Sequence record: NC_018859.1
Strand: one strand, 5' to 3'
Source of the DNA: Escherichia phage ECBP2
DNA length: 64,000 nt
Shown here piece by piece: positions 30,753-48,723 of this stretch. Numbering within the stretch: position 1 is the first letter of the stretch; the number at the start of each line of letters is the position of its first letter. The notes under the pieces were generated by a model. It had not been told where the DNA came from and did not search any database. It worked only from the letters and a program-made list of their open reading frames with translations. Position numbers and translations under genes: made by a program.

Positions 30753-30762
30753 ACAAGAAAAG

Positions 30763-31832: not shown

Positions 31833-31845
31833 TATAATATCCTTA

Positions 31846-32664: not shown

Positions 32665-33100
32665 GATTTCCTCCATGGTGTCGGATAAGGTGACAATTAG
32701 CACAGAGCATGACATATTTATCTAACTCTGCCTTAAGTTTAGGCCAGTACCGATAGTATGAAGGGTTTTCGTCTTTTGTTTGTTCATCCAGATGATGGAA
32801 CTGCATAACACAAGGTGGGTATTCTTTTTTACAATCTAAGCAAACACCTCCCATGTATTCTATTGCTTTTATCTTAAGATCTCTATTTGCCTTATTAGCA
32901 ACCTCTTGCCGTCTTTTTCTATTGGCAGCATACCAAGCTCTTTTCTTTTCTGCGGTACAAATCTTACAAGTTCCAGTCACACCCTTAGTGCACACCTTAT
33001 TGGGGTGATATTCTGTTAGGGCTTTTTCAACCCCACAAACGTTACACACCTTAGTATCTGCATCCACAATTGCTACTTCAGGATAGATTACATCAGGCAT
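32657..33100 (-). CDS. HNH endonuclease (zinc-finger type) carrying a copy of the FEN N-terminus
   Basis: CNVCG...CKIC...FHHL...LCANCH; ATG at 33100 follows GGAGAG (ORF-track start at 33124 is TTG); first 15 codons mirror the FEN start. Confidence 0.6.
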   Translation of the reverse strand: MPDVIYPEVAIVDADTKVCNVCGVEKALTEYHPNKVCTKGVTGTCKICTAEKKRAWYAANRKRRQEVANKANRDLKIKAIEYMGGVCLDCKKEYPPCVMQFHHLDEQTKDENPSYYRYWPKLKAELDKYVMLCANCHLIRHHGGNHE

Positions 33101-33692
33101 AGAGATCTCTCCGTGTCTGTGCAATACTGTACTCTAAATACTCCACTGCCTCTTCTACAGAACCATCATTAAAGAGAAGATAGGTTGAAAGGTTCGTGCC
33201 TTCAATATAGGAACGAGAGTCTCCTTCAAAAGTACATCCATCCCGATAAATCTGAATTACTCGAACATCGAAATGCTTTTCCAGTTCTTCAACTTCTGCT
33301 TTGAATCCACCATCAGAGAAAACGATAACATCGTTCTGTCCTAGCAGTTGTTGTTGTTGAATGCTGCTAACAGCAAGTTTACCCATGCAGGTATCCCCAA
33401 ACATTGGCTTCAGATAGTTCTCACTAGTTGAAATCATCAAATCTCGAACTGACTTACCGCCCCATTCAGGACGGTTATGTTCTTTCCACTCACGGTCGTT
33501 GTACAGCTCCATGAACTCATGAAGAGGGAGACCTAATGCAGCAGCAGCCACTCGATACATAGGCTCCTTAAAAGCCTTTACATGAGGTCTAAACTCATCG
33601 TTACCGAGTGTCTTCTCTAACCAAGAATTAGCGATTGTATCTTTACCACAACCCGGTGGTCCATTCAGAATTACTACTAATGGTTTACTCAT
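33093..33692 (-). CDS. P-loop kinase (putative deoxynucleoside monophosphate kinase)
   Basis: Walker A GPPGCGKDT at residues 11-19; start overlaps the upstream stop (TAATGA). Confidence 0.5.
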   Translation of the reverse strand: MSKPLVVILNGPPGCGKDTIANSWLEKTLGNDEFRPHVKAFKEPMYRVAAAALGLPLHEFMELYNDREWKEHNRPEWGGKSVRDLMISTSENYLKPMFGDTCMGKLAVSSIQQQQLLGQNDVIVFSDGGFKAEVEELEKHFDVRVIQIYRDGCTFEGDSRSYIEGTNLSTYLLFNDGSVEEAVEYLEYSIAQTRRDLYA

Positions 33693-34342
33693 TATTGAAT
33701 CATCCCTTGAAGATCTTCTTTATCAAAGTGCTTCTCTACTACCGCTTCATACAGATCACGATTCTCTGCATAACGGCGATAGAAAGTTCCGTGTGAAATT
33801 CCCAGCTCCTGCTGGATGTGATCATGAGGTATTCCAAGGAAGAGCATAGAGAACATGCTTGCCATTTTCTTGGTATCCATAATATCACTTAAGTCTTGGA
33901 AGAAGAAAAAGATTCTAGATTCCAAGAATGGGTCTCCAGTAGAGTCATGCTTATCCATCGCAATCTCTAAAGGACTTTCCCACGAGTTCATCTCAGGAGG
34001 TCTAAACATATCAGCCTCTGGAATAGAGTAGATACGTCGGTCTCCAACTGTCTGACGGTTAGAACGAATTGACCAGATGATATTCTTAACACGATAAGTC
34101 ATGTGCTCAATATCTTTTTCATCAGTGAGCAGAAGTTCTTCTTGCTTTGCAAACACAAAACGCCAAGCGTTCAGTAACACTTCCTGAGCAACATCCTCTG
34201 CTTCGTGATAATCTTTAATGTCATACATAAAATACTTATGCACAACTTTCCAGTTCTCCCGATAGAATTCATCGAAGGTTGGATAATACTTAATAGGAAT
34301 GCCATGAATACGATAGCGTGTAGGTGTTGTCTTTTTCTTCAT
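33692..34342 (-). CDS. sigma-70 family (ECF-like) sigma factor
   Basis: Region-2-like [14 protein letters not shown] and region-4 HTH-like [23 protein letters not shown]; RBS AAGGACGA. Confidence 0.6.
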
Positions 34343-34366
34343 AAGTCGTCCTTAACTTACTTTACA

Positions 34367-34591
34367 TTAAACTACGCAGAATAAATACATAGCCGTTTCA
34401 GGGCAAGGGATGGCTGTCTGAATGCCACTCACTTTAATCCACATATCCTCTTCAGAGTCATAATAGGCCCAATAGGATTGATCTCCATCTACAAAGAACT
34501 TAAAGGTTCGTCCCCAAATCTGGTTGTTATACTCCCATACTGCATGAAATTGAGTAACACCTTCTGGTATTGTAAGTTCCGCTCTGATCAT
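34367..34591 (-). CDS. hypothetical protein
   Basis: 74-aa ORF. Confidence 0.4.
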   Translation of the reverse strand: MIRAELTIPEGVTQFHAVWEYNNQIWGRTFKFFVDGDQSYWAYYDSEEDMWIKVSGIQTAIPCPETAMYLFCVV

Positions 34592-34848
34592 TGTATCCCT
34601 CTCTTCTTGAGAGCTTTCAGTAAACCATTATGGTTAGCAGCACAGGTTGTGTAGTTGTCCTGATACCACTCTAATGTTGTTGCAAATGCCACTCCCTGTG
34701 CACTCTGAAGCAAAGGGAGATCAACATCACATTCAGCTTTTAGGTTTGTTGGTAAGGGCACTAGCTGCCTGCTGTTGTCGCTCGTTGAACAAGCTGACAA
34801 ATTCATCGCTAGCACACACATTGTAAAAAACTGGCTTAGTCTTTTCAT
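34588..34848 (-). CDS. o-spanin (outer-membrane lipoprotein, Rz1-like)
   Basis: Signal peptide ending in lipobox LSAC; begins inside the 3' end of the i-spanin gene in another frame. Confidence 0.55.
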   Translation of the reverse strand: MKRLSQFFTMCVLAMNLSACSTSDNSRQLVPLPTNLKAECDVDLPLLQSAQGVAFATTLEWYQDNYTTCAANHNGLLKALKKRGIQ

Positions 34849-35080
34849 AATGCATCTCTTTGTAAATAGTTTCTGTGTTCTTCTTCCAGTTTGATAAACC
34901 AGTTAGAACTTTCTGAGCTACTTCATCAGCAGCCTTAGCTCTCTCTATCTCTATCTCTTGCTGTTTCTTCTCTTGGTCAAGAGCATTACTATCATTTCGA
35001 TATTGCTCAAACTTCATACCACCAAAGAAAACCAGAGCTGTAAAGATTAAGAAGCCGATATTATTTTGAAGCTTTTCCAT
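34733..35080 (-). CDS. i-spanin (Rz-like)
   Basis: N-terminal TM helix IGFLIFTALVFFGG followed by a coiled-coil region; ATG at 35080 follows GGAG (ORF-track GTG start at 35104 lies inside a terminator hairpin). Confidence 0.55.
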   Translation of the reverse strand: MEKLQNNIGFLIFTALVFFGGMKFEQYRNDSNALDQEKKQQEIEIERAKAADEVAQKVLTGLSNWKKNTETIYKEMHYEKTKPVFYNVCASDEFVSLFNERQQQAASALTNKPKS

Positions 35081-35093
35081 TTTAACTCCAACG

Positions 35094-35115
35094 AAAAAAG
35101 CCACCCGAAGGTGGC
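35094..35115 (-). terminator. rho-independent terminator (UUCG loop)
   Basis: On the - strand: GCCACC-TTCG-GGTGGC followed by TTTTTT. Confidence 0.55.
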
Positions 35116-35139
35116 TAAGCTATTACAAGGAGAGATTCA

Positions 35140-35880
35140 TTAGAAAGGGCTGTCATCTTCTTCAAAGGTAGATTGCGGCTCTTCATTAATAGTAGGGATA
35201 CTTGGAGTCGCGTCTTTCTGTTCAGTGTCAGAAGCGCGAGTAACTTCACGACCGGCCAGAGGAATGTTTTTAGCATCGTTAGCTTGAGTCAGAAGGTTAC
35301 GTTGGAATGGAAACATAGCTTGATAAGCAGCCAAGTTGGCGTCAGTTTCAGCGTACGGTTCGAAGAAGATAAGGTCGCTACGAGGAGCACCTACTGCATC
35401 ACGATACTTGGTCGGGATTGGAGTGATGCTCTTGATGGAGTTTTTCTTCTCACCAGCTTTGTTGGTGTAAGAGTTAACTAGAATGTTGACAGGCTGACCA
35501 AGCAGCATATCTTTGAACCAACCCAAATCACCTTTCAGTGCTTGAACACTTGGGTCGATCATTTTAATTAGGTTCAGAATACCAGAGTTCTTAGCTCGTG
35601 GGTTTACATCGAAGGATTTAAACTGACAAGCAGGACGTGGGTCCAATGCCTTACCATCACTATCTGTACCAGTTGCGTCAACACCAATCAGTTCAAATGC
35701 CAAGTCCATACGGAAAGCTGGGTTCTTAGGAGTAACTGCTTTGGTCTTAGGGTCAATCCAAGGGTCACGATTGTGAACACCTAAACCTACTACACGAACA
35801 ATTCGTGCTTCGTACTCGCCATCAGGGATTACATCGTAGTTGGATTTACGGGATACAGACAGTTCAGGGATCATAGACAT
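35140..35880 (-). CDS. single-stranded DNA-binding protein (T7 gp2.5-like, putative)
   Basis: 246 aa ending in the acidic tail STFEEDDSPF with C-terminal Phe; RBS AAGGAA. Confidence 0.45.
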   Translation of the reverse strand: MSMIPELSVSRKSNYDVIPDGEYEARIVRVVGLGVHNRDPWIDPKTKAVTPKNPAFRMDLAFELIGVDATGTDSDGKALDPRPACQFKSFDVNPRAKNSGILNLIKMIDPSVQALKGDLGWFKDMLLGQPVNILVNSYTNKAGEKKNSIKSITPIPTKYRDAVGAPRSDLIFFEPYAETDANLAAYQAMFPFQRNLLTQANDAKNIPLAGREVTRASDTEQKDATPSIPTINEEPQSTFEEDDSPF

Positions 35881-35939
35881 ATTAATATTTCCTTATATAA
35901 ATTTAAGATTGTTGCTCTCTTTGAGCGGTTGGTATACTA

Positions 35940-35948
35940 TATACATTA
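35940..35948 (-). promoter_or_regulatory. TAATGTATA promoter-like motif
   Basis: Exact motif on the - strand about 60 nt upstream of the SSB start, inside a 350-nt ORF-free region. Confidence 0.35.
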
Positions 35949-36010
35949 CACCTATACAGATAAGGTTCTATTATACTATAACCTTTTTGGTAGTAGATAA
36001 CAGTAAGTAG

Positions 36011-36019
36011 TAATGTATA
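36011..36019 (+). promoter_or_regulatory. orphan TAATGTATA motif on the + strand (possible ncRNA or antisense promoter)
   Basis: Exact motif with no + strand ORF downstream before 36229. Confidence 0.25.
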
Positions 36020-36228
36020 TATGGTATAGTTAGTAAAACTATTGCACGGGACCGACGACTATAAGGCGCGGACAACCACCTCTCATAAGTTTGTTAGAAA
36101 TTGAGAGACTACCGGAAGGGCAGGAGACACCTGCGAGATAAAAATAGAGAATTAAGGAAATCCTTGATTTAGGTTGAGGACTCCTAGGACTTTGATTCTC
36201 TATTAAAATCAAAAGAAAACTAATTAAC

Positions 36229-36825
36229 TTACCATTCAATAAACTGATTTAGATTAGTATACTTAACTTCTCTCTGAAACTGAAGATTAGATTCTCTCTG
36301 TTTAGTAAGAAGATTAAGTTCATCTTCCTTTCTTTTATCAAACTCTTTTCTAATCTCTTGCAGAGACACAGCTCTGTAATCAATTTGTTCCATAGAAGTA
36401 CAAAAGTATCTCCAATCTTTGATAGTAGAGTTATGAGTATGAGCATAGATATTATACTTTCCTCTCATTTCATCAGAGTGAATAGGAATATGAGTTACCC
36501 AAAACTCTTTGTACTTATAATCACCACTGATGTGTCTAAAGACTTTCATCATATCAGGGAGAAGTTCTAATCTGTCATGATTTCCTAAGACAAGATGTTT
36601 CTCTCCTTTTACTTCAGCGATGATATCAAGGGCATACTTTTCAAACACCCAATCACCGGTAAAGAAAGTTTTATCACGTTTAGTAACATGGTCAAACGCT
36701 GCTAAGATAGCTTTGTCGTGTTCTTCAATACTACTAAACCTCTTCCTAAAGCTACAGATGTTACGATGGCCTAGGTGACCATCACCTGCAAAATAAACTT
36801 CAGCCATTCTCGTATGTGTCCTCAT
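36229..36825 (-). CDS. calcineurin-like metallophosphoesterase
   Basis: GDGHLGH, GNHD and HTH motifs; start uncertain (MRTHTR at 36825 or MAEVYF at 36807). Confidence 0.65.
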   Translation of the reverse strand: MRTHTRMAEVYFAGDGHLGHRNICSFRKRFSSIEEHDKAILAAFDHVTKRDKTFFTGDWVFEKYALDIIAEVKGEKHLVLGNHDRLELLPDMMKVFRHISGDYKYKEFWVTHIPIHSDEMRGKYNIYAHTHNSTIKDWRYFCTSMEQIDYRAVSLQEIRKEFDKRKEDELNLLTKQRESNLQFQREVKYTNLNQFIEW

Positions 36826-37057
36826 AATATGAGTAGTTGAAGGATTCAGCTTTCGTTTCAGCCTCCTCCATATCGTCTGTTTCCAGAATCACTCTCCAGC
36901 CAGAACCGTTAGGATATTCAGCTCCCTCATCTAGCCAGACTTTGTATCGTTTAGATTGTGCAACCATCGCAGATGTAATCTCCACTAAGAGACTCTTGTA
37001 GGAGTCGAGATTGCTCATCGGCATACAGAGCATCAATTTCTTCCTTGAGCTTTGCAA
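36800..37057 (-). CDS. small hypothetical protein, paralog of 37535..37735
   Basis: Shares KYxVW..E...GW..IL.TDD.EEAE...NYS.YYE with 37535..37735; true start probably internal. Confidence 0.4.
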   Translation of the reverse strand: MQSSRKKLMLCMPMSNLDSYKSLLVEITSAMVAQSKRYKVWLDEGAEYPNGSGWRVILETDDMEEAETKAESFNYSYYEDTYENG

Positions 37058-37154
37058 GTTCTACGAAGTTTATCAATTGACCATAATCCGTCGCATCAGT
37101 GACGAATTGAAACAAACCTTTACCTTCAGCTTTAACAATATACTCTTTAGACAT
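36951..37154 (-). CDS. hypothetical protein
   Basis: 67-aa ORF. Confidence 0.35.
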   Translation of the reverse strand: MSKEYIVKAEGKGLFQFVTDATDYGQLINFVELAKLKEEIDALYADEQSRLLQESLSGDYICDGCTI

Positions 37155-37378
37155 TATAAGATCTCCCTTTGTTTGCTGTTAATGACCGTCATCGCTGTGA
37201 CTGGATTGTTTGTTCCAAGATATTCCAGAACAGGGACACCCTTAGTCGGTTTATCAGCCTCTGTGTAATTCTTAACCTTGCCACCAAGAACCGCTAGAGA
37301 AGCCTGAGCTTCCGCTTCATCATAGTGAATTCGGTCAACTGTTTTCTTTCCAATCCTATAAGTGTGAACGTAAATCAT
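37154..37378 (-). CDS. hypothetical protein
   Basis: 74-aa ORF. Confidence 0.4.
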   Translation of the reverse strand: MIYVHTYRIGKKTVDRIHYDEAEAQASLAVLGGKVKNYTEADKPTKGVPVLEYLGTNNPVTAMTVINSKQREIL

Positions 37379-37581
37379 TTAACTTCCTCAATATCAACTA
37401 ATTCAAAACTTCCTATTTCTTCAAGCTTAATAATCTCTTTAACCTTCTCAACAGCTTTAATAGGGTTTTCTTCTTCTACAACTTTACACCCTGATACTTC
37501 AAGACTGCCTGTTCCACGAAGGTATAAATTCAACTTATAAACTACTTTGTAGTATTTCATCGTGCTCCCAATTTCTTTCAT
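37375..37581 (-). CDS. hypothetical protein
   Basis: 68-aa ORF; start uncertain. Confidence 0.35.
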   Translation of the reverse strand: MKEIGSTMKYYKVVYKLNLYLRGTGSLEVSGCKVVEEENPIKAVEKVKEIIKLEEIGSFELVDIEEVK

Positions 37582-37735
37582 AATATCCAGAGTTGTAGTT
37601 TAGGGCGCATTTCTCGGCCTCTTCTATGTCATCTGTGTTTAGGATATTAACCCAACCACCAACTTCATCAAAACCCTCTTCTTCTTCATTAAACCATACG
37701 CTGTATTTCTTCATCTTGATAAGACTCTCCCCCAA
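37535..37735 (-). CDS. small hypothetical protein, paralog of 36800..37057
   Basis: 66 aa; shared motif with 36800..37057. Confidence 0.4.
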   Translation of the reverse strand: MGESLIKMKKYSVWFNEEEEGFDEVGGWVNILNTDDIEEAEKCALNYNSGYYERNWEHDEILQSSL

Positions 37736-37886
37736 TCCTTGATGTAACAGCGACCGTCAACCCACTTTGTATCTGACTTAAATTCTTGAGACAGTCTCAC
37801 TTCACAATCTTCTCTACTGGCATCCCCTCCGATATCAATCAGATACAGGAATAGGGCTATACCTAAAGCCCAAAGAATTAACTTCT

Positions 37887-38279
37887 TCATCGTATCACCA
37901 GAGGCTCTTCAGAGTATACAGGAGAGGCTATTTCTACCGGAGGTGCTGCTCTAAGGTCATTAAGCCTTACGCCCTTCAGCATACCATCTAGGTGGTCCAT
38001 TTTAGGGATACCTACAGGGAAGTCATCAATCCAAACATCCACAAAGAAACCCAAGCTCTGGGTGACGGAATCCTTCTGAACACCGTTGCAAAAGATAACA
38101 GGAATATCTAGACTTGCTGCATCTGCTAGAAGCTCCTCATTTGAATACCCATTGGGTTGAGCAAAACGATAGGTGACAATACGTACATCATGTCCACGAG
38201 ATTTCATAAGACCTACAATGTGGGTCCACATCTCTTTGTCCACTGTAAAAGTATCATCATAATCTAAACCAATATTCAT
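37887..38279 (-). CDS. HAD-like phosphatase/nucleotidase (putative)
   Basis: N-terminal IGLDYDDT resembles the HAD motif I DxDxT. Confidence 0.4.
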   Translation of the reverse strand: MNIGLDYDDTFTVDKEMWTHIVGLMKSRGHDVRIVTYRFAQPNGYSNEELLADAASLDIPVIFCNGVQKDSVTQSLGFFVDVWIDDFPVGIPKMDHLDGMLKGVRLNDLRAAPPVEIASPVYSEEPLVIR

Positions 38280-38300
38280 ATTAGCCTCTTAGACAAGAAA

Positions 38301-38317
38301 AGCCACCCGAAGGTAGC
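38301..38317 (-). terminator. terminator-like hairpin (UUCG loop)
   Basis: On the - strand: AGCTACC-TTCG-GGTGGCT followed by TTTCTTGTCT. Confidence 0.4.
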
Positions 38318-38560
38318 TTATTTATTTTGTGTTTCCAGCTCGATAATACGAACCTTCAATCCATTGATTTCTGCATCAGCAGCTTCTAACTTAATCAAAC
38401 TTTCTTCAGCGTTAGCTTCAATCTGGATAACAGCAGTAGTCAGTTCATACAAAGCTTGACGTAAGGTATCCTTACCCATAGAGTGAATCTGTGCAAGGAG
38501 GTGTTGTTTACCTTCAGATGTTTCCAGAGTTTCTTTTAATTCTTTAGAGGTTAGAGTCAC
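38318..38560 (-). CDS. hypothetical coiled-coil protein
   Basis: 80-aa ORF. Confidence 0.45.
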   Translation of the reverse strand: MTLTSKELKETLETSEGKQHLLAQIHSMGKDTLRQALYELTTAVIQIEANAEESLIKLEAADAEINGLKVRIIELETQNK

Positions 38561-38562
38561 TA

Positions 38563-38757
38563 TTAATTCCTTTCGTAGATTTTGAGAACTGTACCACCAT
38601 CTTCTTCAATCTGAGCAACGACTTCATCGCGTTCTTCATCAGAATAAACTAGTTGGTTATGAAATTTACCAGTGGAGTCTTGATAATAGATATTCCACTT
38701 TGGAGCAGGTTTACGAATCAGGTCCATCATTTGGCTTTCTCCTCTCGTTCTACCCAT
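38563..38757 (-). CDS. hypothetical protein
   Basis: 64-aa ORF. Confidence 0.4.
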   Translation of the reverse strand: MGRTRGESQMMDLIRKPAPKWNIYYQDSTGKFHNQLVYSDEERDEVVAQIEEDGGTVLKIYERN

Positions 38758-38942
38758 GTTTGAAATAATTCACCGTAATCTTTGGCGTCTTCAAAACGCC
38801 CTTCATCCTGTGCGAGCTTCTGTTGATTCAAGCACCATTCAGAACTTTTTACTTCTTCCACTTCCTTGTCTCCTTAAAAAGAACTAATCAATAAGACTAG
38901 TTCATTTCGTAATACCATTCAACTCTTCCACTGAACTAATCA

Positions 38943-39254
38943 CTACTTCTCCACCACAAAGAGGTTAACTTCAATGAAAGTTTCGTATTGTGTTGACTCC
39001 TGCTTACGGGTGTAGTAGAAATGACGACCTTCTAATGCACCTCCGTACTGAGTGGCACATCTTTTAACCATCTCTTTTATCACATCTATAACTGATACGC
39101 CTTTCCACGGACGTAACCCATGAGTAGGAATTTCTGCTGTGCAGGTTACTTGTGTATAACCTACATCTTGTAGAGGTGTCTCAAGAATCAGCTTTGCCCA
39201 AGCATCAAAATTAAGCTTGGGGTTATATTTAACTTCAGTTTTGATATCAATCAT
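38943..39254 (-). CDS. hypothetical protein
   Basis: 103 aa; start overlaps the polymerase exon-2 stop (TAATG). Confidence 0.45.
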   Translation of the reverse strand: MIDIKTEVKYNPKLNFDAWAKLILETPLQDVGYTQVTCTAEIPTHGLRPWKGVSVIDVIKEMVKRCATQYGGALEGRHFYYTRKQESTQYETFIEVNLFVVEK

Positions 39255-39408
39255 TAGTGAGTATGATTCCAGTTTAATCCAATCTTACAATCAGATGCAA
39301 GAGGACATTCCATCTTGAGATATTCCCCTGCTTTACGGACACACTCTTCAGTGAGAGTGCGCAGAATATTAACATCATCACGATGTACAGTGAACTGGCC
39401 TTCATCCA
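39254..39408 (-). CDS. DNA polymerase (family A, T7-like) C-terminal segment (exon 2)
   Basis: Translation DEGQFTVHRDDVNIL...KIGLNWNHTH carries the motif-C Asp-Glu and the G.NW..H terminus; not part of any ORF-track entry. Confidence 0.6.
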
Positions 39409-40013
39409 TTCAGTTATTCCCAAATTACTTCGGGTGTCGGACTATATCATAACAGCATAGCTAATTTGCTGTTGTTGGCGCTTCGAGGGTTTCCCTGTTA
39501 ACCCCCTACTCCCTTAGGATAGTCTCTACACTTTCCACTTCCGAATCCATCTACAACCGATTCCGAAGCTCACACCAAACTTCTCTGCAAGATGTACACC
39601 AGAGCATTCTGTTTCTAGCCAATAGAGCCTTGCAGCCTCTTGCCTATCTCCATTTCTTCCAGTGTTTGATTCTATTGCATGTTCTGAACCTTCAAGCATT
39701 TCTAAGTGCTCAAGATTGGAACAAGCTCTATTCTTGCATTTGTGATTTATTTCATAACCGTCAGGAATAGAACCAAAAGATTCTTCCCAAACATGCCTGT
39801 GATACATGACCCATTTGCCATCTATTACTTTTCTGAAATAACCATTTTTATTAAGTTTGTGTGAGATAGGGATGATACACCCTGTTTCGGTTGTTTCCAA
39901 AACAAGAGTTTTCTTAGCCATATCATCTCCTAATAGCTTAGCTCGGTATTGCCCTCAACTTAATGGTAGGGTTTCACCGAGTTCACCAACTTTTACATGC
40001 ACAATGAAAGTTT
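39409..40013 (-). mobile_element. putative group I intron (about 605 nt) carrying an HNH homing endonuclease ORF, inserted at polymerase motif C
   Basis: Joining the His codon ending at 40014 to GAT at 39408 gives VIDMH|DEGQF (motif C). Exon 1 ends in U and the insert ends in G, as group I splice sites require. Confidence 0.45.
39526..39921 (-). CDS. HNH homing endonuclease (intron-encoded)
   Basis: 131 aa; KWVMYHRHVWEESFG...EINHKCKNRACSNLEHLE (HNH_3-type); RBS GGAG. Confidence 0.7.
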   Translation of the reverse strand: MAKKTLVLETTETGCIIPISHKLNKNGYFRKVIDGKWVMYHRHVWEESFGSIPDGYEINHKCKNRACSNLEHLEMLEGSEHAIESNTGRNGDRQEAARLYWLETECSGVHLAEKFGVSFGIGCRWIRKWKV

Positions 40014-41705
40014 ATGCATGTCGATAACCTTCGCACAACGAACACCATCACGCTCAATCCATTTATTGAGGAATAGCATTGCATACTTCATAACAATCGC
40101 CCCAGCGCTCTGTAAGAGCGTATTTAAGGCTTTATGGACCATAACCTTTCCAGTTGCATCTCTTCTCATTGTAATACGACGTCCATCCACACCGTAGATG
40201 TATCCACTTTGTGCTTTCTCGGTCATACGTTCAATAAGGATTGCAATACAAGGATTCTCTGCTAAGAATCTTGCTCTCATAATAGCCCCTTCGTCAGAGC
40301 CACCACCTACGATACTTCCTAGTTTAGCGTCACCTGCCCCATAGTTAAAGGCATATATAAACGTCTTAGCGTTATCGCGAGTAGGAAGACCAGCAAGTTT
40401 TTGGTTATGTGAGTGAATATCTCCTTCTAAAAGAATATCTCTGTACATAACAGCAGAAGCTAGACCACGTTCAGCTTCTCGTTTCTTAGCTGGGTTGTTT
40501 TCTCGCTCTGCTTCAGCGAGCATCTCACGACATTCTTTAATAAGGTAGTGAGCTAGCATCCTCAGCTCAAGACCAGAGCCATCGTAACCTAAGAAGATTT
40601 CACGACCAGCAGGTACATAGAACTTATAGGCACCTACAGGTTTGTCTTTCTTGCCCGGTTTTCCCACTTCGTAGATAATGTTAGTACCTTTTCGTACGTA
40701 ACACCCATCAGGGATATGGTTGGTAATGATGAAAGGATAGTTATGACTATCGTCTGAGGAATAGTCAGATTGAAAAAGACTGCGGCACTCGTGACCAAAC
40801 AAACCGCGAGAAGGAATATTAACAACAATACGGTGTTTAAAACGAAATGTCGGAGTAGCGCAGCTATTAGCTTCGGCGGACAACTTACCATCTTCTCGTT
40901 CCTTGTCTATAAGACCATTAATCAAGCCAAGCCTGTGAGCCGCTACAACACGTCTCTTAAGCAAACCTCCCACACCCCCTAGCTCACCCCCAAGACCTTC
41001 TTCAAGCGTCTCCTCGAGGTTTGTAGGAGCTGTAGGCCACTTGTTTGACATGGCTAAAGCTTTCTTAATTTCATCAAAGGTTACAGGCTTCTTCCTGTTC
41101 GGATTCAAGCCTAAACCACTGACGTAGGCTTTCATGTAGTTGACAGTGTGATAACGGAAGTGTTTATCCAAGAACCGACGAATGTCAGCATCAATCATCT
41201 CAGCTGTCTGTTTTTCTTTAGCGTTTCCTCGCATCCAAGCAGAATACCAAGCAGCATATGTGCCATACTTCTTCATCGCTTTACGGATTTCGTAAGTATT
41301 CCAAGGTTTCTTGGATGTGTTCCACTCTGGAGGAATGAAGCCTTCATCCATCAAGGCTTCTTTGATACGTGCATCTTTCGATGGGTCGAAGTCTACATAC
41401 TCAACGCAAGTAAACGCCCCACCGATATCTTCTCTTTTAAGACCAACTCTGTCACAATAAAGCTGAGGCCACTTCTGTAAAGCACCTGACTTCTTAAAAG
41501 GTTTCGAATAAGTTGAACCATCCACCCGCATTTTGGGGAGGAGAGGAATCAGTTCTTTATCAATATTGACAATAATCTCTTTGAGAAGGTGAACAAACCA
41601 CCGAGCGTTTCTTCTGTGGAAGTTGACGCCATGCTTCGCCTGCTTTGAGATTATATCAGCGACTGTCATCTCCGTTATGAAAGGTAACTTATCAGGGTTA
41701 TCCAT
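40014..41705 (-). CDS. DNA polymerase (family A, T7-like) polymerase domain, exon 1
   Basis: DGSGLELRMLAHY (motif A), LPTRDNAKTFIYAFNYGAGDAKLG (motif B), HKALNTLLQSAGAIVMKY; ATG at 41705 follows AAGGAG; the uninterrupted ORF instead ends KLSLCM at 39993, losing motif C. Confidence 0.8.
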
Positions 41706-41721
41706 CACCCACTCCTTATAG

Positions 41722-42075
41722 TTATTGATATATTAAATCAGTGAACGCTTGGTTATCCTCAACGATATCTAACTGTTCGTAGGATTCCGTTAGTTCATCC
41801 ACATAAAAGACTGCTGGAATATCTTCTGCTCGCTGTCTACGAGCTTCTCTTCGTTCGTTACTGTTCCTCTGAACCTGTGCAAGTTTCATACCCCACACCT
41901 GCTCATACAACTCAGGATACTTATCACTAACCACTACAAAGTTTCGAGCTGGTTGGTTTCGGTTAATCTTCGCTGTTAATTCAATAAACTGACGAAACTC
42001 TTGAATGGAGAGGTTGTCATGAATATTGTCCCATTTGAGAACGCAGTGACGTTCTAGGCGTTGAGGTACTGGCAT
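41722..42075 (-). CDS. hypothetical protein
   Basis: 117-aa ORF. Confidence 0.45.
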   Translation of the reverse strand: MPVPQRLERHCVLKWDNIHDNLSIQEFRQFIELTAKINRNQPARNFVVVSDKYPELYEQVWGMKLAQVQRNSNERREARRQRAEDIPAVFYVDELTESYEQLDIVEDNQAFTDLIYQ

Positions 42076-42078
42076 AAC

Positions 42079-42348
42079 TTACTCCACTGTCGGGAAAGGT
42101 TTCAGATTGTTCATAGCTGTACGAACATCATCACAGATTTCAGGGTCACGATAAGAGAGGAATTTACCATCCTTACCACGAATCATTACATTCGTCCGTG
42201 CTGTTTTATTAGGCAATAAAGAAATCCCTCCAATAAGATGGTTGGTAGGGTGTTGTCCTTGATTAACCTTGTAGTCATGAGTCTGAGCGTCACCATTAAA
42301 GAGATGATCACGAATTTGGATTAAGCTAATCTTCATATTATGCACCAA
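42079..42348 (-). CDS. small hypothetical protein, tandem paralog
   Basis: Shares RTNV..RG.DGKF.S.RD...LKPFP with the adjacent 42338..42589 ORF. Confidence 0.5.
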   Translation of the reverse strand: MVHNMKISLIQIRDHLFNGDAQTHDYKVNQGQHPTNHLIGGISLLPNKTARTNVMIRGKDGKFLSYRDPEICDDVRTAMNNLKPFPTVE

Positions 42349-42589
42349 AGTTAGGGAAAGGTTTCAGATTTTCAATAGACTCAGCAATACGCTTAGGAAC
42401 AGCCTTATCACGGAAGGAGATGAACTTGCCATCAGGACCACGAAGGGCTACATTAGTACGAGCTGTTGTTTTGTTAAACTGAATCATCTCAACAGAGCTT
42501 GTAACATTTTCTACAGGAAAAGTATAGCTCTCAGTTGTGTTCAGAGAAGGGAGGAAATCAGTTACAGTGATGTAAGTTACTTTAGACAT
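42338..42589 (-). CDS. small hypothetical protein, tandem paralog
   Basis: Paralog of 42079..42348. Confidence 0.5.
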   Translation of the reverse strand: MSKVTYITVTDFLPSLNTTESYTFPVENVTSSVEMIQFNKTTARTNVALRGPDGKFISFRDKAVPKRIAESIENLKPFPNFGA

Positions 42590-42615
42590 ATTTATTACCT
42601 TAGGTTACATAAAAG

Positions 42616-42640
42616 AAAAGGCCACCCGAAATGGGTAGCC
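42616..42640 (-). terminator. terminator-like hairpin
   Basis: On the - strand: GGCTACCC-ATTTC-GGGTGGCC followed by TTTTCTTTT. Confidence 0.4.
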
Positions 42641-42645
42641 TTATA

Positions 42646-42972
42646 TTAACTTGAGCTTAAAGCTCCTTTTCTAGACTTGACTCCGCCTGCTGATTTTCCA
42701 GCACGATCTCCACTTTTGCCGCCGTTCGAGCGATTTCCAGAGATTGATTCAACACGTAAGTTACTTGACGCATTAGAACCTCCCGACTTGATTGATCGTT
42801 TATGTCCAACGTCTTTACCTCGGACAGCAGCTTTTCCATCGCGCTTTTCAACGATGCGACGTGCACGGTGGCGCTGAGCATCTCCGCTCTTGCTACCAAC
42901 ACCTGTCTCCCCACGTTTGATTGCAGTTCTTCGTTCTTGTGCATAATCACGTTTCGCCTTATCGGTCATCAT
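42646..42972 (-). CDS. basic Lys/Arg/Gly/Ser-rich protein (possible nucleic-acid binding)
   Basis: AAGGAG then ATGATG at 42972; preferred over the overlapping frame 42657..42950, which lacks an RBS. Confidence 0.5.
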   Translation of the reverse strand: MMTDKAKRDYAQERRTAIKRGETGVGSKSGDAQRHRARRIVEKRDGKAAVRGKDVGHKRSIKSGGSNASSNLRVESISGNRSNGGKSGDRAGKSAGGVKSRKGALSSS

Positions 42973-43004
42973 AACTCCTTAATATATCAGTGTACACTAA
43001 GGAG

Positions 43005-43013
43005 TATACATTA
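43005..43013 (-). promoter_or_regulatory. TAATGTATA promoter-like motif
   Basis: aTAATGTATAct on the - strand about 33 nt upstream of the 42972 start. Confidence 0.3.
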
Positions 43014-43016
43014 TGT

Positions 43017-43754
43017 TTATGATTTTTCAGATTCCATTGCTTTAACAATAGCTTTACAGAAACCTGAACGAACAATATCATCCGATTCGCCATCTACTAG
43101 AGCGGCAAATTCAAATAACTGGTGACGGTAGATGAAATCAGTAGCCCAATCAAGACCACTCTCACCACGCATGTCGTGCTGGTTAGTGTCCCCCATGCAG
43201 AACATCTGAGAGGTTTCACCAAGACGTGTCATGATTGAATATGCTTCATCAGGAGTAGTGTTCTGGAACTCATCAACAATCACGATAGCATCGTTGAACG
43301 AGCGACCACGTAGATATTCCAGAGGTACGAACTCAATATTACCATTACCTACTTGACATTCGTAGAAACCTTTACCGTAGCGCTGAGTAATAACATCAAC
43401 GATTGGCATTAGGTATGGTTCAAACTTCTCACGAAGCCCACCGGGAAGTAATCCAAGACTATTACCCATACCAACAGCAGGTCGGCTTAGGATAATCTTC
43501 TCAATCTTCCCACTCTTCAGAGCATCAATCACTGTAGAAGTGATTACGAAGGTCTTACCACAACCAGCAGGAGCATCTGTGAATACAACCTGTTTGGTTT
43601 TAATTGCATCAAGCAGCTCACTCTGGAATTGGTTCTGAGGTACTACCGGCTTAGCAAGAACTACTTCTTCAAATTCCCGCTTTCCTTTCTTGGTGACGAG
43701 AGCTTCACGACGTAATTCTCTCCGTGACGCTTTCCGAGATTCTCTACGACTCAT
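43017..43754 (-). CDS. phoH: PhoH-like ATPase
   Basis: Walker A APAGCGKTF and overall PhoH-like architecture. Confidence 0.75.
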   Translation of the reverse strand: MSRRESRKASRRELRREALVTKKGKREFEEVVLAKPVVPQNQFQSELLDAIKTKQVVFTDAPAGCGKTFVITSTVIDALKSGKIEKIILSRPAVGMGNSLGLLPGGLREKFEPYLMPIVDVITQRYGKGFYECQVGNGNIEFVPLEYLRGRSFNDAIVIVDEFQNTTPDEAYSIMTRLGETSQMFCMGDTNQHDMRGESGLDWATDFIYRHQLFEFAALVDGESDDIVRSGFCKAIVKAMESEKS

Positions 43755-43932
43755 TTCCTACCTCCGTGTTCTTCATATAAGAAGCTACAGGATTTACACT
43801 CTGAGCAATGGATACCTATAACCTTAATTTCGACAAACTTCTTATTCTTCCCTTTAGTCGGGGAGCCTTTGGCAAGCTCCCGTATTACTTTCGAGTTCAA
43901 ATGGAGAAGAGTTGATTCACATTTAAAACATT

Positions 43933-44253
43933 TCAGATTGATTTGTCCTTATGTAAACGGTATACTTCAGTAGCCATACAAGCAATACGCTCGTCATGTG
44001 GGAGATGCATACCAGTAGAGCCGTTCCATCCTTCGAACTCTGAATCAAAGAATCCAACAGGCTCGGGATACATCTCTTGCAAAGTGGTTAAGTCATCAGC
44101 CACTTGTTGCCATTTGTCATCAGACCAGATTGGGTCATCCAACCAATAATACAGATAGGAATGGATAAGCATCTGCGTTCTGTGTCGTTTAATCACTTCA
44201 GCAGGACTAATCTCGTTTCCGTTAACAGTCCTAAATGTATTATCATTAATCAT
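43933..44253 (-). CDS. small protein resembling the N-terminal domain Ia of NAD-dependent DNA ligase
   Basis: LIHSYLYYWLDDPIWSDDKWQQVADDLTTLQEMYPE parallels the LigA H.YLYY.LD.P.ISD.EYD.L...L..LE..YPE signature. Confidence 0.35.
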   Translation of the reverse strand: MINDNTFRTVNGNEISPAEVIKRHRTQMLIHSYLYYWLDDPIWSDDKWQQVADDLTTLQEMYPEPVGFFDSEFEGWNGSTGMHLPHDERIACMATEVYRLHKDKSI

Positions 44254-44729
44254 TCCAAAACCCTTTCTTCTAAATCGTAAAAGATTTGATTTGTCCCATT
44301 ATTCTCAACAAGCACTGTTCCATTATCTAACAGGGTAGCAACTTGGGAATAAGGAATGTTCTTTAACATCAGAGCATTAATGGTCGGCTTATTTTTGAAG
44401 TAAGCGACAGGCTCAACATAGAAGGAAATCCCACGACTTCCTTTAATTGGAGTGCTAGAAGATAGAACCCAAATTGTTTCTGGCTTGTCTATTTCCTTTT
44501 CAACACCAACCTCAACAAGTGAGTCAGCAGCGAAACCTACAGGACGACTAGAAGAGCCAAGTGCCCGAATAAATCCTGGCAATTTTGACATGTTAGACCA
44601 ACTACCAGTGTTTTCATTAAACACAGGTCTTACGTCTCCATATGCCCAAACCAGATTATCATAGTCACGGGCTATGTATTTAACCCAATCAGGAACATCA
44701 TACTCCCTTCCTTCAAAAATAACTTTCAT
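44250..44729 (-). CDS. hypothetical protein
   Basis: 159-aa ORF. Confidence 0.45.
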   Translation of the reverse strand: MKVIFEGREYDVPDWVKYIARDYDNLVWAYGDVRPVFNENTGSWSNMSKLPGFIRALGSSSRPVGFAADSLVEVGVEKEIDKPETIWVLSSSTPIKGSRGISFYVEPVAYFKNKPTINALMLKNIPYSQVATLLDNGTVLVENNGTNQIFYDLEERVLE

Positions 44730-44999
44730 TTAGATAACCTTGTGCTTATAGATGTTAGGGTTGAAGTAGTGCAACCAGTTTATATATTGTTTCTGTTCGA
44801 GGTAGTGCCTGCAATCATGACAAAAAGCATGACCCAAACCTGTTTCCTCATTCAGTTTGAAATTGATAAGAAGCTTCTGCTTTCGACAGAAGCTACATGC
44901 TTTAGTGGGCTTCACGTAATGCATCCCAAGAGATTGGATATATTTTACGAAGCTCTTCATCAATTGTTGATGCGAACACTCGTACTTCGTACTGAGCAT
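44730..44999 (-). CDS. small Cys-rich (zinc-finger-like) protein; start uncertain
   Basis: CSFC...CHDCRH pairs; the 5' end overlaps the ThyX gene, so the true start is probably internal. Confidence 0.35.
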   Translation of the reverse strand: MLSTKYECSHQQLMKSFVKYIQSLGMHYVKPTKACSFCRKQKLLINFKLNEETGLGHAFCHDCRHYLEQKQYINWLHYFNPNIYKHKVI

Positions 45000-45552
45000 G
45001 GTCTGACAGTCGCTGACGACACAACTCTGACCAACCGTATAGAGAACCAGTCCATACCCACTCAGTGATCATACCCTGAGGTAATACGAATCGAGCTTGT
45101 TCTGGAGCAATGAACTTAATCAATTCATCGTACGACTCAAGAGCTGTTTCATATGCTCGGTTAATCAGAACTAGTGCAGAGTTTTGTGCTCCTGTGGTGA
45201 GGAGATTCCCTGCACCTGCATGGAGGTCCGAAGGTCTTTCAAAAATCTCTTTAGGGATGAAGAGTTCAACTGCTCCATCTTTATACCGCCGGGACATTTC
45301 GTTCCACGAGAATCCAACTTGGTGTTTATTGAGTTGTCTAGCAATTGCAATGGGAGCCTTACACCGAAAGGTGATTTGAGGGTGTCGAAAAGGAGTCACA
45401 TGACGTTCCCGAGCTAAGAATTTAATCAACCGCTCGTCACGTTCGTTCAGATCACCATCTCGTGTCACACCAAAGGAAACCCTTGCTGCATTGACCACAG
45501 ATTTGTCGGAACCCATGTGCTCTACCAGTGTTGCTTTTAAAAAATCAGACAT
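44902..45552 (-). CDS. thyX: FAD-dependent thymidylate synthase
   Basis: Region HQVGFSWNEMSRRY resembles the ThyX RHR...S...S.RY signature. Confidence 0.75.
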   Translation of the reverse strand: MSDFLKATLVEHMGSDKSVVNAARVSFGVTRDGDLNERDERLIKFLARERHVTPFRHPQITFRCKAPIAIARQLNKHQVGFSWNEMSRRYKDGAVELFIPKEIFERPSDLHAGAGNLLTTGAQNSALVLINRAYETALESYDELIKFIAPEQARFVLPQGMITEWVWTGSLYGWSELCRQRLSDHAQYEVRVFASTIDEELRKIYPISWDALREAH

Positions 45553-46012
45553 ACTTCAACTTCTCCTTGTTGTAAATTTCTTCTGCCTCTTCGCAAGAAG
45601 CAAAAGTTCCTAAATGTATATTCTTACCTTTGACGCCGATAATGGCTCGATATTTATCACCAGAAGCTGTCTTACGAAGATACACACCTCTAGGAAGATT
45701 TCCTATCTTGTTATCAACATCGTACTGCCTTCTGTTATGACAGTTAGTAGATGGATTCACATCTCTTAGGTTATCAATTGAGTCATTAAGTTTGTTCTGG
45801 TCAATGTGGTCAATTTCAAACTCAGGGAATTTTCCATGAACAAAGAACCAAGCAAGACGGCAAGCTCTGTAGCTTTTCCCTTCATGCTCAATGTAACGAT
45901 AACCTAGAGAAGATACATACCCAGCTTGATTTCCTTTAACCCTTCGACCTTTTGTGTTCTTCCAGAAGAAGTCTCCAGTCTTAGGGTTGTATTCCAAGTC
46001 GTCTTGTATCAT
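45545..46012 (-). CDS. HNH homing endonuclease with AP2-like DNA-binding domain
   Basis: EIDHIDQNKLNDSIDNLRDV (HNH) plus YRAIIGVKGKNIHLGTFASCEEAEEIY (AP2-like). Confidence 0.7.
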   Translation of the reverse strand: MIQDDLEYNPKTGDFFWKNTKGRRVKGNQAGYVSSLGYRYIEHEGKSYRACRLAWFFVHGKFPEFEIDHIDQNKLNDSIDNLRDVNPSTNCHNRRQYDVDNKIGNLPRGVYLRKTASGDKYRAIIGVKGKNIHLGTFASCEEAEEIYNKEKLKYV

Positions 46013-46019
46013 TTCTTAC

Positions 46020-46235
46020 TTAATAGTGAATCTTTTTATAAATCAGGTTGCTTCCACTTTCTGTTTCAATCCCTTTCTGGATTGTAACTTTAGAAGCACC
46101 GGTATTAGCAATTTTTAAAGCTCGCTTAAACCGGCGAGCCTCTTTCCGTGTGGAGTATGTTGAGAAGCTAGGGATTGTGCTATCAAAATTAAACCACTTA
46201 ACTACCCAAAAAGTAATCCAAGGTTTCTTTTCCAT
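46020..46235 (-). CDS. small protein, member of a three-copy paralog family
   Basis: Shares W...F.TR.EAR..K......KV.I......SG...I..K.HY with 48100..48315 and 48315..48527. Confidence 0.45.
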   Translation of the reverse strand: MEKKPWITFWVVKWFNFDSTIPSFSTYSTRKEARRFKRALKIANTGASKVTIQKGIETESGSNLIYKKIHY

Positions 46236-46236
46236 A

Positions 46237-46512
46237 TTAAATACCTTTCAGAGCCGTGTCTAAAAATGCACGGAGATTAGATTCAGTTTGCATACCTGAT
46301 AAACTATAATGAGCACCACTATTCTTATCAGGGACGACAAAGGCTGGGATACTGCGAACACCGTATTCAATGGCTCGCTCTCGACCATTACCTTCAGAGA
46401 TATTTACTTCTTCAACTTCTACACTGTAGTCAGCCACAACCTTCTTAAACACAGGAGCCATAGCTGCACATGGAGCACATGAATTACTATAAAACTTAAT
46501 TACTTTACTCAT
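46237..46512 (-). CDS. thioredoxin/glutaredoxin-like protein
   Basis: CAPC active-site motif in a thioredoxin-fold context; ATG at 46512 follows AAGGAA. Confidence 0.6.
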   Translation of the reverse strand: MSKVIKFYSNSCAPCAAMAPVFKKVVADYSVEVEEVNISEGNGRERAIEYGVRSIPAFVVPDKNSGAHYSLSGMQTESNLRAFLDTALKGI

Positions 46513-46702
46513 TCTATTCCTTGTTAATAAACAGGTTGATATGACGCTGGGTAGCAGGAACAACAATAAAAGATTTATACTGACCTTTTGCTAAGTCATG
46601 AGCAATCTTCTTTGTCTGACCAAGACCCATCACACAGCCACTAACGATAATGGCATGTGCTTGTAATTCTTCAGGTAGGTTTAGTTTCACTCTTTAGATT
46701 CC

Positions 46703-46888
46703 TTATAGCATACAAAGAATAATAACAAGAGGTAGTGTTATAGCAAAATGTACCAGAACAACACTACCTAGCTTGATAGCTTTAACATCCTCTTCTGCTG
46801 GGTTTTCTTTAATTGCTAAATTTCGAGCTTTATATATAACAGTACCAACTATTAACGACCACACGGCCCACACAATCAGTGAAATCAT
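46703..46888 (-). CDS. small two-TM membrane protein (paralog pair)
   Basis: 61 aa with two hydrophobic segments; similar to 46898..47119. Confidence 0.45.
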   Translation of the reverse strand: MISLIVWAVWSLIVGTVIYKARNLAIKENPAEEDVKAIKLGSVVLVHFAITLPLVIILCML

Positions 46889-46897
46889 ATCAAACCC

Positions 46898-47119
46898 TTA
46901 TGCAGTCAACAGGTGGAGAAGGAAAGGAATGACAACAGAGAAAATTACCAGAGCAATGCTGCCATGTTTAATGGGTTTAGCATCATTCGGATTTTCTTTA
47001 AGCATCTGTTTCTGAGCCAGATAAACGATACCACCAACAAGAATTGCCCACACAGACCATACGATTGCTGAAAACATATTCACATCCTTATAAAGAAGTT
47101 CGCCCCACCTCTTAAACAA
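46898..47119 (-). CDS. small two-TM membrane protein (paralog pair)
   Basis: 73 aa; IVWSVWAILVGGIVY...KENP...K.GS.ALV.F shared with the neighbour. Confidence 0.45.
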   Translation of the reverse strand: MFKRWGELLYKDVNMFSAIVWSVWAILVGGIVYLAQKQMLKENPNDAKPIKHGSIALVIFSVVIPFLLHLLTA

Positions 47120-47140
47120 AGAGACAGGGCGGAGGTTTGA

Positions 47141-47707
47141 TTAGTAAGACACGTCACCACTAGAGTGGGACATGTTGCTCTTGACGAAGTAACAGAACTT
47201 GCCAAGACCTTCATTAATTTCTTGAAGCATACTCTGGTCTACTGGATAGGTGCACAAGTCTGAATCAAACTCGTCCATCTTTTCAATGATACACATCAGA
47301 GTCATGCACATGTCGGAAAGCATACCGTCCATGTCGAGATCAGCACTACCTTCTCTGAACCAAGCACAACTAAGATAGCTACTAGCTGTTGCATCCACTT
47401 TGATACAGTGATAACGCATTCGCTCAGCTACTCGGTCTCCTGTTTCACGAGCATAGTCTTCTAATTCATCGAACATACCATGAACACCTTGGAAACCAGC
47501 TCCAGAGACGTTCCAGTGGTAATTCTTTGCTTTGATGTGTAGAAGCTCAAGGTTAGCCTGCACACCGCATAGGATGTGCTCTAGACTGTTACCGCTGATC
47601 AGTTTATTCATTCCCTCAAGACGAGAGATAGAGGAGTCAGTTGTAGAGAATGGGTTACTAGAACCCACTCGTGTTAGTTCAGGTAAGTCGAAGACATTAT
47701 TATGCAT
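47141..47707 (-). CDS. Dps/ferritin-like protein (putative)
   Basis: HWNVSGAGFQGVHGMFDELEDYARETGDRVAERM parallels the Dps ferroxidase-site motif; RBS GGAGAG. Confidence 0.5.
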   Translation of the reverse strand: MHNNVFDLPELTRVGSSNPFSTTDSSISRLEGMNKLISGNSLEHILCGVQANLELLHIKAKNYHWNVSGAGFQGVHGMFDELEDYARETGDRVAERMRYHCIKVDATASSYLSCAWFREGSADLDMDGMLSDMCMTLMCIIEKMDEFDSDLCTYPVDQSMLQEINEGLGKFCYFVKSNMSHSSGDVSY

Positions 47708-48047
47708 TAGGAGTCTCTCCTTCTAAGTTGGTTGAATTGGCTACGTTACGAGCAATGTTGTCCATGACCTGCTGGGTAATAACAATGCAATTCTGTGGGT
47801 CTACAGACTTAGAACGCCCCATTTCAGGGTCATAAACCTTAACACGTTTGGCTGTTGAGCCAGTAACTTGCAACACTTTGAGAAGATAACCTTGATTTCC
47901 AATAGACCATGCAACAACATCACGATTCTTGATATAACGACCAAGCATATCACGATGATAGAACTGCTGCATAACTTTAGCTTTGCTAATCTCTTCAGAT
48001 GGCGGGGCCACTTTACTCAAATCTAACATAACTCTCTCCTGTTTCAT
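47700..48047 (-). CDS. hypothetical protein
   Basis: 115-aa ORF. Confidence 0.45.
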   Translation of the reverse strand: MKQERVMLDLSKVAPPSEEISKAKVMQQFYHRDMLGRYIKNRDVVAWSIGNQGYLLKVLQVTGSTAKRVKVYDPEMGRSKSVDPQNCIVITQQVMDNIARNVANSTNLEGETPNA

Positions 48048-48066
48048 ACAATATTCTTATACTGTA

Positions 48067-48075
48067 TATACATTT
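48067..48075 (-). promoter_or_regulatory. AAATGTATA promoter-like motif
   Basis: 8/9 match to TAATGTATA on the - strand just upstream of the 48047 start. Confidence 0.25.
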
Positions 48076-48099
48076 GAGAGTTATCATATCTACTACCAA

Positions 48100-48315
48100 C
48101 TAGTAATAAACCTTGCTGGATATGAATCCAGCACTGTTCTGGATATTTTCAATCCAACGATGAATCTCCACCTTTTCAGCGATTCCTAAAGCTTTTGTAG
48201 CTTTTATAGTTTTCTTAGCAAGACGAGCCTCTTGTCTTGTGTTGAATAATTGAATACAATCACCACCAAGAGCTTTGTTAGCCCATTTAGTACGAACTGC
48301 CCATAATTTATCCAT
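48100..48315 (-). CDS. small protein, paralog family member
   Basis: 71 aa; see 46020..46235. Confidence 0.45.
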   Translation of the reverse strand: MDKLWAVRTKWANKALGGDCIQLFNTRQEARLAKKTIKATKALGIAEKVEIHRWIENIQNSAGFISSKVYY

Positions 48316-48718: not shown

Positions 48719-48723
48719 CTTGG

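Follow-up and report, generated by a model that had tools for sequence, protein, structure and literature searches.

A group I intron with an HNH endonuclease gene between the His codon and the Asp codon of motif C in the gene for DNA polymerase from the phiEco32-like Escherichia phage ECBP2

In phage genes for family A DNA polymerase, group I introns of subgroup IA2 with HNH nicking endonucleases have been described in SPO1, SP82 and Bastille (I-HmuI, I-HmuII and I-BasI), in Pf-WMP3 (I-PfoP3I) and in phiL7 (PMC3428280). The closest described systems to the one considered here are the introns of ΦI and W31, for which the same source, citing Bonocora and Shub (2004), reports a self-splicing IA2 intron at Pol I site 881 with an HNH open reading frame (ORF) in P6a, as well as, in common with the Pf-WMP3 intron, the absence of P2, a P7.1 and a P7.2 linked by GUA and an ORF start within P6a (PMC3428280). 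I-TslI, the endonuclease of ΦI, is presented in two further sources as an enzyme that nicks its target and has a core site of 9 bp (PMC8136825; PMC8845596). Here, a stretch of 64,000 nt from Escherichia phage ECBP2 (NC_018859.1), referred to hereafter as the window, was analysed, in which the family A DNA polymerase gene is interrupted within motif C by an insert that is, with high probability, a mobile self-splicing IA2 intron lying between the His and Asp codons and encoding an HNH homing endonuclease in P6a. The window belongs to a phiEco32-like coliphage and this region is 96.8% identical to that of vB_EcoP_SU7 (Gordonclarkvirinae, Suseptimavirus), hereafter SU7. All the features discussed below lie on the minus strand and all coordinates are those of the window.

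Regarding the polymerase gene, the upstream ORF (41708..39993) terminates in ...KVIDMHKLSLCM before its stop codon, the in-frame UAA at 39995..39993, and contains exon 1 (40014..41705), that is 564 codons from the ATG at 41705 to the CAT encoding the His of motif C (40016..40014). Exon 1 matches Pfam DNA_pol_A over profile positions 144-334 (51.7 bits for a cut-off of 34.3). Downstream of the HNH gene, a 51-aa ORF (39409..39254) reads M-DEGQFTVHRDDV...GLNWNHTH, i.e. MDEGQFTVHRDDV...GLNWNHTH, and includes exon 2 (39254..39406), the 50 codons (DEGQF...GLNWNHTH) and the stop codon of which supply the Asp-Glu of motif C and the family A C-terminus; exon 2 covers DNA_pol_A positions 335-380 and matches the C-termini of DNA polymerases in PHROG. 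Since exon 1 leaves the profile at position 334 and exon 2 enters it at position 335, the family model is covered by the two without a gap between them. Once 40014 is joined to 39406 in silico, a 614-aa polymerase free of internal stop is obtained, with VIDMH|DEGQF at the junction and a DNA_pol_A domain in which the HDE of motif C is restored. Besides, the C-terminus of this spliced protein aligns without a break with residues 531-702 of the T7 DNA polymerase (gp5), MHDEGQ standing over VHDEIQ, and this continuity across HDE places the insertion between the His and the Asp of motif C.

The boundaries of the insert were set by comparison with the close relatives IME267 and 4E8, in which the polymerase gene is an uninterrupted sequence of 614 codons reading ...GACATGCAT|GATGAAGG... 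across the site (CATGCAT|GATGAAGG). The start of exon 1 and the junction are consistent with the coding sequences (CDSs) of both phages, with the products of which the spliced protein is colinear (97.9% identity to each). As the insert corresponds to an exact gap in this alignment, it extends from 40013 to 39407 (607 nt), from a first base A to a terminal G (omega-G) that closes an ATG formed by the last three bases (39409..39407), exon 1 ending in T at 40014 and exon 2 opening with the codon GAT at 39406..39404. This base-exact placement rests on two aligned intron-less genomes, many further intron-less records being retrieved by BLAST. The initial annotation had already proposed that the polymerase gene is interrupted at motif C, that the missing C-terminus lies beyond the HNH gene and that exon 1 ends in U and the insert in G, all of which agree with the ORFs, the Pfam contiguity, the T7 alignment and the intron-less alleles; it had also suggested a comparison with intron-less homologous genes, and the junction predicted is exactly that of IME267 and 4E8. 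Its start of exon 2 at 39408 and its length of 605 nt were nonetheless 2 nt off, so that the restored VIDMHDEGQF stands in frame when 40014 is joined to 39406 but not through the literal join of 40014 to 39408, a slip without effect on the conclusion.

At the RNA level, the group I covariance model RF00028 matches the insert over the full length of the model (39418..40023; 27.2 bits, E=1.3e-4 for the local search and E=0.0066 for the whole window). No Rfam family is matched at the gathering threshold in the whole 64-kb window, and RF00028 is the sole match in it at E<=0.05, which, together with the base-exact boundary, speaks against a fortuitous match. The alignment treats the 396-nt ORF as a single long insertion, and the GAUAUAGUC core aligns with the RF00028 consensus. 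P1 (40021..40014 / 40002..39995, i.e. a span of 39995..40021) pairs the exon sequence ACAUGCAU with the internal guide GUGCAUGU over 8 bp, the U(40014)·G(40002) wobble sitting at the 5' splice site. In the P1 loop lies the P10 strand UUCAUU (40008..40003), complementary over 6 bp to GAUGAA (39406..39401), the first six bases of exon 2. P2 is absent, only AAAA separating P1 from P3. The 5' half of the catalytic core (39935..39990) brings together the 5' strand of P3 (39990..39984 / 39480..39474), P4 (39981..39976 / 39947..39942), P5 (39971..39968 / 39955..39952) and the 5' strands of P6 and P6a (39941..39935 / 39532..39526), with the ORF in the P6a loop. The 3' half of the ribozyme (39407..39525) runs from P7 (39524..39519 / 39445..39440; GACUAU / AUAGUC) to the omega-G (39407) at the 3' splice site, through P7.1 (39518..39511; CCUAAGGG), a linker AGUA containing GUA (39510..39507), the P7.2 hairpin GGGGG...CCCU (39506..39486), the P8 hairpin (39473..39451) and P9 (39434..39419). 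In other words, the insert exhibits the hallmarks of a group I intron, namely a P1 with its U·G pair, an omega-G together with P10, and a P3-P9 core with the P3/P7 pseudoknot, and the occurrence of GUA-linked P7.1 and P7.2 between P7 and the 3' strand of P3 assigns it to subgroup IA2 as delineated in PMC3428280. The minimum free energy fold of the window ribozyme, taken without the ORF, recovers P1, P3, P4, P5, P7.2, P8 and P9 (z=-4.0).

This structure was further confronted with homologs collected from 53 phage records (blastn with the intron) and 25 IMG/VR contigs (core motif), from which 20 distinct ribozymes, with the ORF excised, were aligned by MAFFT and annotated with a hand-written structure, the controls consisting of 3' partners slid by 1-3 columns and of 500 shuffles. 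Standard pairs fill 95.7% of the cells in the 20 homologs vs. 34-44% in the slid controls, double-sided changes affect 16 of the 51 pairs vs. 0-6 in the slid controls, and the covariation score was reached by none of the 500 shuffles. Compensatory changes concern P3 (six of seven pairs), P9 (four of six), P1 and P10 (two each), as well as P5 and P6a, and P4 is also supported in this pairing analysis. Because P8 and P7.2 fall out of register across lineages in the MAFFT alignment, they were not counted among the pairs but inspected in every sequence individually, each forming a hairpin in all 20 homologs despite unrelated sequences. The U·G pair of P1 at the splice site is invariant (20/20). 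Next to the UGCAU core, T7-like hosts (exon GGGUGCAU) have G-C as pair 5-32 of P1, and the phiEco32-like ones (exon ACAUGCAU) have A-U, a switch matching the exon, which indicates that the guide sequence has followed the exon. As for P10, 97.4% of the cells are paired, and in Vibrio phage Vp_R1 both sides of one pair have changed, from U-A to C-G.

Within P6a, an ORF of 131 aa (39526..39921) encodes an HNH protein related to I-TslI, as judged from Pfam HNH_3 (50.1 bits for a cut-off of 24.8) and PHROG 6254 (8.5e-43). It is preceded by its own ribosome-binding site (RBS), AGGAG at 39931..39927, starts with the ATG at 39921 and ends with a UAG (39528..39526) that forms the P6 3' strand. The protein shows 55-63% amino acid identity with the ORFs carried by the introns of T7-like phages, reaching 62.6% over all 131 residues for Sekstaphage-1, and 47% identical over residues 5-89 to the T3 gene 5.3 region; a sequence search of the PDB with it gave no match at E<=0.01. 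With an invariable length of 131 codons and a non-synonymous to synonymous ratio (pN/pS) of 0.03-0.27, the substitution pattern indicates that the HNH gene is under purifying selection. The HNH endonuclease gene and the group I intron-like insert put forward in the initial annotation are corroborated, and the covariance model scan it had recommended returned the end-to-end RF00028 match of 27.2 bits described above.

Besides the window, homologs residing in polymerase genes all share the insertion point ...TGCAT|intron|GAYGA..., including those of 13a, K1F, Sekstaphage-1 and VSG32, and Pol I site 881 is precisely the His of HDE. In the 13a and K1F records, gene 5 is annotated as a two-piece joined CDS around the intron. 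Over its whole length, the window intron is 61-68% identical in nucleotides to the T7-like copies (blastn E down to 1e-40), whereas the host polymerases share 29% identity and the flanking exon DNA about 48-52%. Such an element, far more conserved than the genes that host it, argues for lateral transfer into a target constrained by the polymerase active site (TGCAT|GATGA).

When the spliced junction was used as query, about 90 records of phiEco32-like phages with an uninterrupted gene were retrieved, including phiEco32, SU10 and NJ01, and the 607-nt insert was found in about nine records of such phages, including SU7, PAS59, FH3, 1-6af, 1-6bf, pEC-N1203-2Af.1 and PE006. The exon flanks of PAS59 are 94% identical to those of the window and SU7 but 75% to those of PE006, while its intron is 92% identical to that of PE006 and 84% to that of the window; with similarities so opposed, the history of the intron is discordant with that of the gene carrying it. 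Together, the sporadic presence of the insert among phiEco32-like phages and this discordance point to mobility.

Beyond these two groups of hosts, Vibrio phage Vp_R1 (112 kb, Grimontviridae) has the same intron at the same polymerase site, with compensatory changes in P1 and P10. On the whole, it seems somewhat better than an even case that a single intron-endonuclease unit has crossed between unrelated families, i.e. Autographiviridae, Gordonclarkvirinae and, with Vp_R1, Grimontviridae, its guide being re-tuned to the new exon after each jump. Such movement would be possible because the polymerase active site keeps the target of about 10 bp, TGCAT|GATGA, constant. A homologous HNH ORF (51.6% amino acid identity) is also present in Aeromonas phage vB_AsaP_MQM1 (63 kb), where it is annotated inside a putative polymerase intron; if this element is the same, the host range would exceed two phage families. 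Closely related ribozyme cores were also observed in other genes, namely in L021, L024, L026, L039, L031 and L037 from the homolog collection, and in Rhizobium phage RHph_N3_13 (2501-2562), where the gene is that of a split ribonucleotide reductase. The extended P5 sequence of the kuravirus copy recurs in L037, is also spanned by the match of the Rhizobium intron, and is not seen in T7-like copies, which hints that the 5' half of the kuravirus intron may be mosaic.

ORF-less homologs at the same polymerase site are two in number, on contigs L022 (around 2600-2830) and L035 (9330-9587). In the latter contig, metagenomic and T7-like, the polymerase gene harbours a pair of group I introns (8689-8917 and 9330-9587, with 69 and 61 bits on RF00028, respectively), the second of which is the ORF-less homolog of the window intron at the His|Asp site. 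In L030, the intron measures 419 nt, with a shortened ORF region. Taken together, these forms resemble steps on the way to gaining or losing the endonuclease.

On the basis of established group I intron chemistry and of the ΦI system, the following course of events can be proposed. The polymerase gene and its intron would be transcribed as one pre-mRNA, the ribozyme folding during transcription and its internal guide pairing with the 8 nt that close exon 1 (P1) and the 6 nt that open exon 2 (P10). Once bound at P7, an exogenous guanosine would attack after U40014, at the U·G pair of P1, and the freed 3'-OH of exon 1 would in turn attack after the terminal G at 39407, P10 aligning exon 2. The ligated mRNA, with the junction ...GACAUGCAU|GAUGAAGG... 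(GACAUGCAU|GAUGAAGGC), would restore HDE and hence yield the complete 614-aa polymerase. Given the stop seven codons into the intron, unspliced RNA would result in a truncated protein deprived of the catalytic Asp-Glu. The HNH protein, presumably made from its own RBS (AGGAG), would act on co-infecting relatives by nicking their intron-less polymerase alleles close to the insertion site, as its homology with I-TslI of ΦI suggests, and recombinational repair would then copy the intron into the nicked allele, i.e. homing. The presence of the element in phiEco32-like phages probably stems from lateral transfer out of the intron family of T7-like phages, with adaptation of the guide to the new exon.

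The boundaries, the structure and its covariation, the homology, the in-frame junction, the sporadic and discordant distribution and the selection on the endonuclease gene are established from the sequences, while the chemistry of splicing and the activity in homing are inferred. Several observations weigh against considering the insert as a mobile self-splicing intron. The RF00028 score of 27.2 bits does not reach the gathering score of 50, for which the ORF in P6a is probably responsible; on the same model, the ORF-less homolog of L035 (9330-9587) scores 61.2 bits, above this gathering score, and that of L022 scores below it. P7 and P7.1 are invariant among the 20 homologs and consequently bring no covariation information. 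The AUG at the end of the intron (39409..39407), in frame with exon 2, permits separate translation of the latter. Lastly, the second Cys of RACCN, which lies beside the HNH core, is replaced by Ser (C68S).

This last replacement is at the heart of the alternative that withstands scrutiny best, although it is judged improbable, namely that splicing is intact but mobility lost, the endonuclease of the window and SU7 being inactive or respecified and the intron transmitted by vertical inheritance only. At codon 68 (39718..39720), RACSN is confined to the window and SU7, all other homologs, kuravirus and T7-like alike, having RACCN, and the intron of the window/SU7 type (98% identical between both) was found only in SU7 in the collections searched. 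Yet the ORF retains its full length of 131 codons and an HNH_3 score well above the cut-off, the window and SU7 genes differ by 8 synonymous and 2 non-synonymous changes (pN/pS 0.06), as expected under purifying selection, and the discordance between intron and exons in kuraviruses speaks for recent movement of the family.

Less credible still is an unspliced split gene, in which a free-standing HNH gene would be surrounded by the remnants of a dead ribozyme and the 571-aa and 51-aa polypeptides would associate. The GenBank records of SU7, PAS59, PE006 and 1-6af do annotate two polymerase CDSs, the in-frame ATG at 39409 stands right before exon 2 with an RBS marked upstream of it by the SU7 annotators, and the sub-threshold RF00028 score could be taken in the same sense. 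Against this, however, no helix of the ribozyme is broken and compensatory changes maintain them all, P1 and P10 included, the pairing of which is specific to the exons of this phage. The T7-like copies of the intron end in ...GAAAG, leaving exon 2 without a start codon, the putative RBS of exon 2 falls within the P9 stem, and a split would part the His from the Asp-Glu of one and the same catalytic motif. In addition, self-splicing is reported for ΦI and W31, close relatives of the T7-like copies (PMC3428280). Finally, three other readings, an intein, a group II intron and an artefact of assembly, can practically be dismissed, for beyond the bare interruption of a conserved gene nothing favours any of them: the stop seven codons into the insert and the separate HNH ORF with its own RBS leave no in-frame insertion for an intein, the only Rfam match is to group I with none to group II, and the insert recurs in at least seven independently sequenced phiEco32-like isolates (9 records), in one contig from a metagenome (L027) and in numerous genomes of T7-like phages.

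The retained interpretation, a mobile self-splicing IA2 intron with its HNH homing endonuclease, bears directly on genome annotation. In the records of SU7, PAS59, PE006 and 1-6af, the two polymerase CDSs are accompanied by no intron feature and some are labelled 'hypothetical protein'; FH3 and other phiEco32-like genomes likewise give two polymerase CDSs with the intron unrecorded. The CDS of the homing endonuclease in SU7 is called from an upstream start overlapping exon 1. As the comparisons made here indicate, the correct gene model for the affected phiEco32-like genomes is the spliced 614-aa polymerase. No description of an intron in Kuravirus or phiEco32-like phages was found in the literature searched, which omits most subscription journals, and the genome papers of SU7 and PAS59 contain none of the terms 'intron', 'homing' or 'DNA polymerase'. 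Elsewhere in the window (1..64000), ARAGORN detected no tRNA genes. Within exon 2, 37-51 nt downstream from where the intron is inserted, the window reads AATATTCTGCGCACT at 39356..39370, where SU7, IME267, 4E8 and PAS59 all read AACAAACTTCGTACC; 6 of the 15 nt in this patch (39370..39356) differ, for a single amino acid change (K578I), and the exact window-specific 21-mer is absent from IMG/VR in an exact-pattern scan. This patch may be a co-conversion or recombination tract from an unsampled donor.

The current understanding of group I introns is left unchanged by this locus, which will come as no surprise to the specialist and the value of which lies in the annotation and in one more example of inter-family intron transfer. 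One intron-endonuclease pair is met at the homologous active-site codon across families with polymerases only 29% identical, and the retuning of the guide along with natural ORF-less copies provides useful data for the Bonocora-Shub model of the formation and spread of mobile introns. Where such phages are combined in cocktails, homing elements can distort recombination as well as the inheritance of markers; if the crossing of families proves true, the element would constitute a natural broad-range homing device, which could bias the inheritance of the polymerase region in mixed therapeutic coliphage infections.

Compared with known systems, the introns of SPO1, SP82, Bastille, Pf-WMP3 and phiL7 resemble the window element in their general life style but occupy other sites (Pol I 674, 676, fingers subdomain) and have another HNH architecture (PMC3428280). 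None of them appears by nucleotide homology among the BLAST matches of the window intron. In T3, the product of gene 5.3 (F-TslI) is a homologous HNH protein, but free-standing beside an intron-less polymerase gene, and only the N-terminal two-thirds are common with the window protein. According to what is reported of the work of Bonocora and Shub in 2009, this T3 product shares with I-TslI the polymerase target that it cuts. The likeness is closest with the ΦI/W31 type, as measured on 13a, K1F and other T7-like copies and, for ΦI and W31 themselves, as judged by description: the window intron shares with it the insertion site, the lack of P2, the GUA-joined P7.1 and P7.2, a P6a ORF with its RBS in P6a and its end just before P7, the 131-codon HNH ORF and the TGCAT|GATGA core of the exon target. 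It differs from the T7-like copies in its host, a podophage of phiEco32-like type, about 76 kb in size (Gordonclarkvirinae, Suseptimavirus-like), in a guide changed to fit the new exon (A-U for G-C, within an 8-bp P1), in a P5 extended by 9 nt, a shorter P7.2 (kuravirus copies) and a longer P8, as well as in the C68S replacement of the endonuclease. The element itself is thus already known from T7-like phages, as the ΦI/W31 family at site 881, and it is the phiEco32-like phages that constitute a new host lineage for it.

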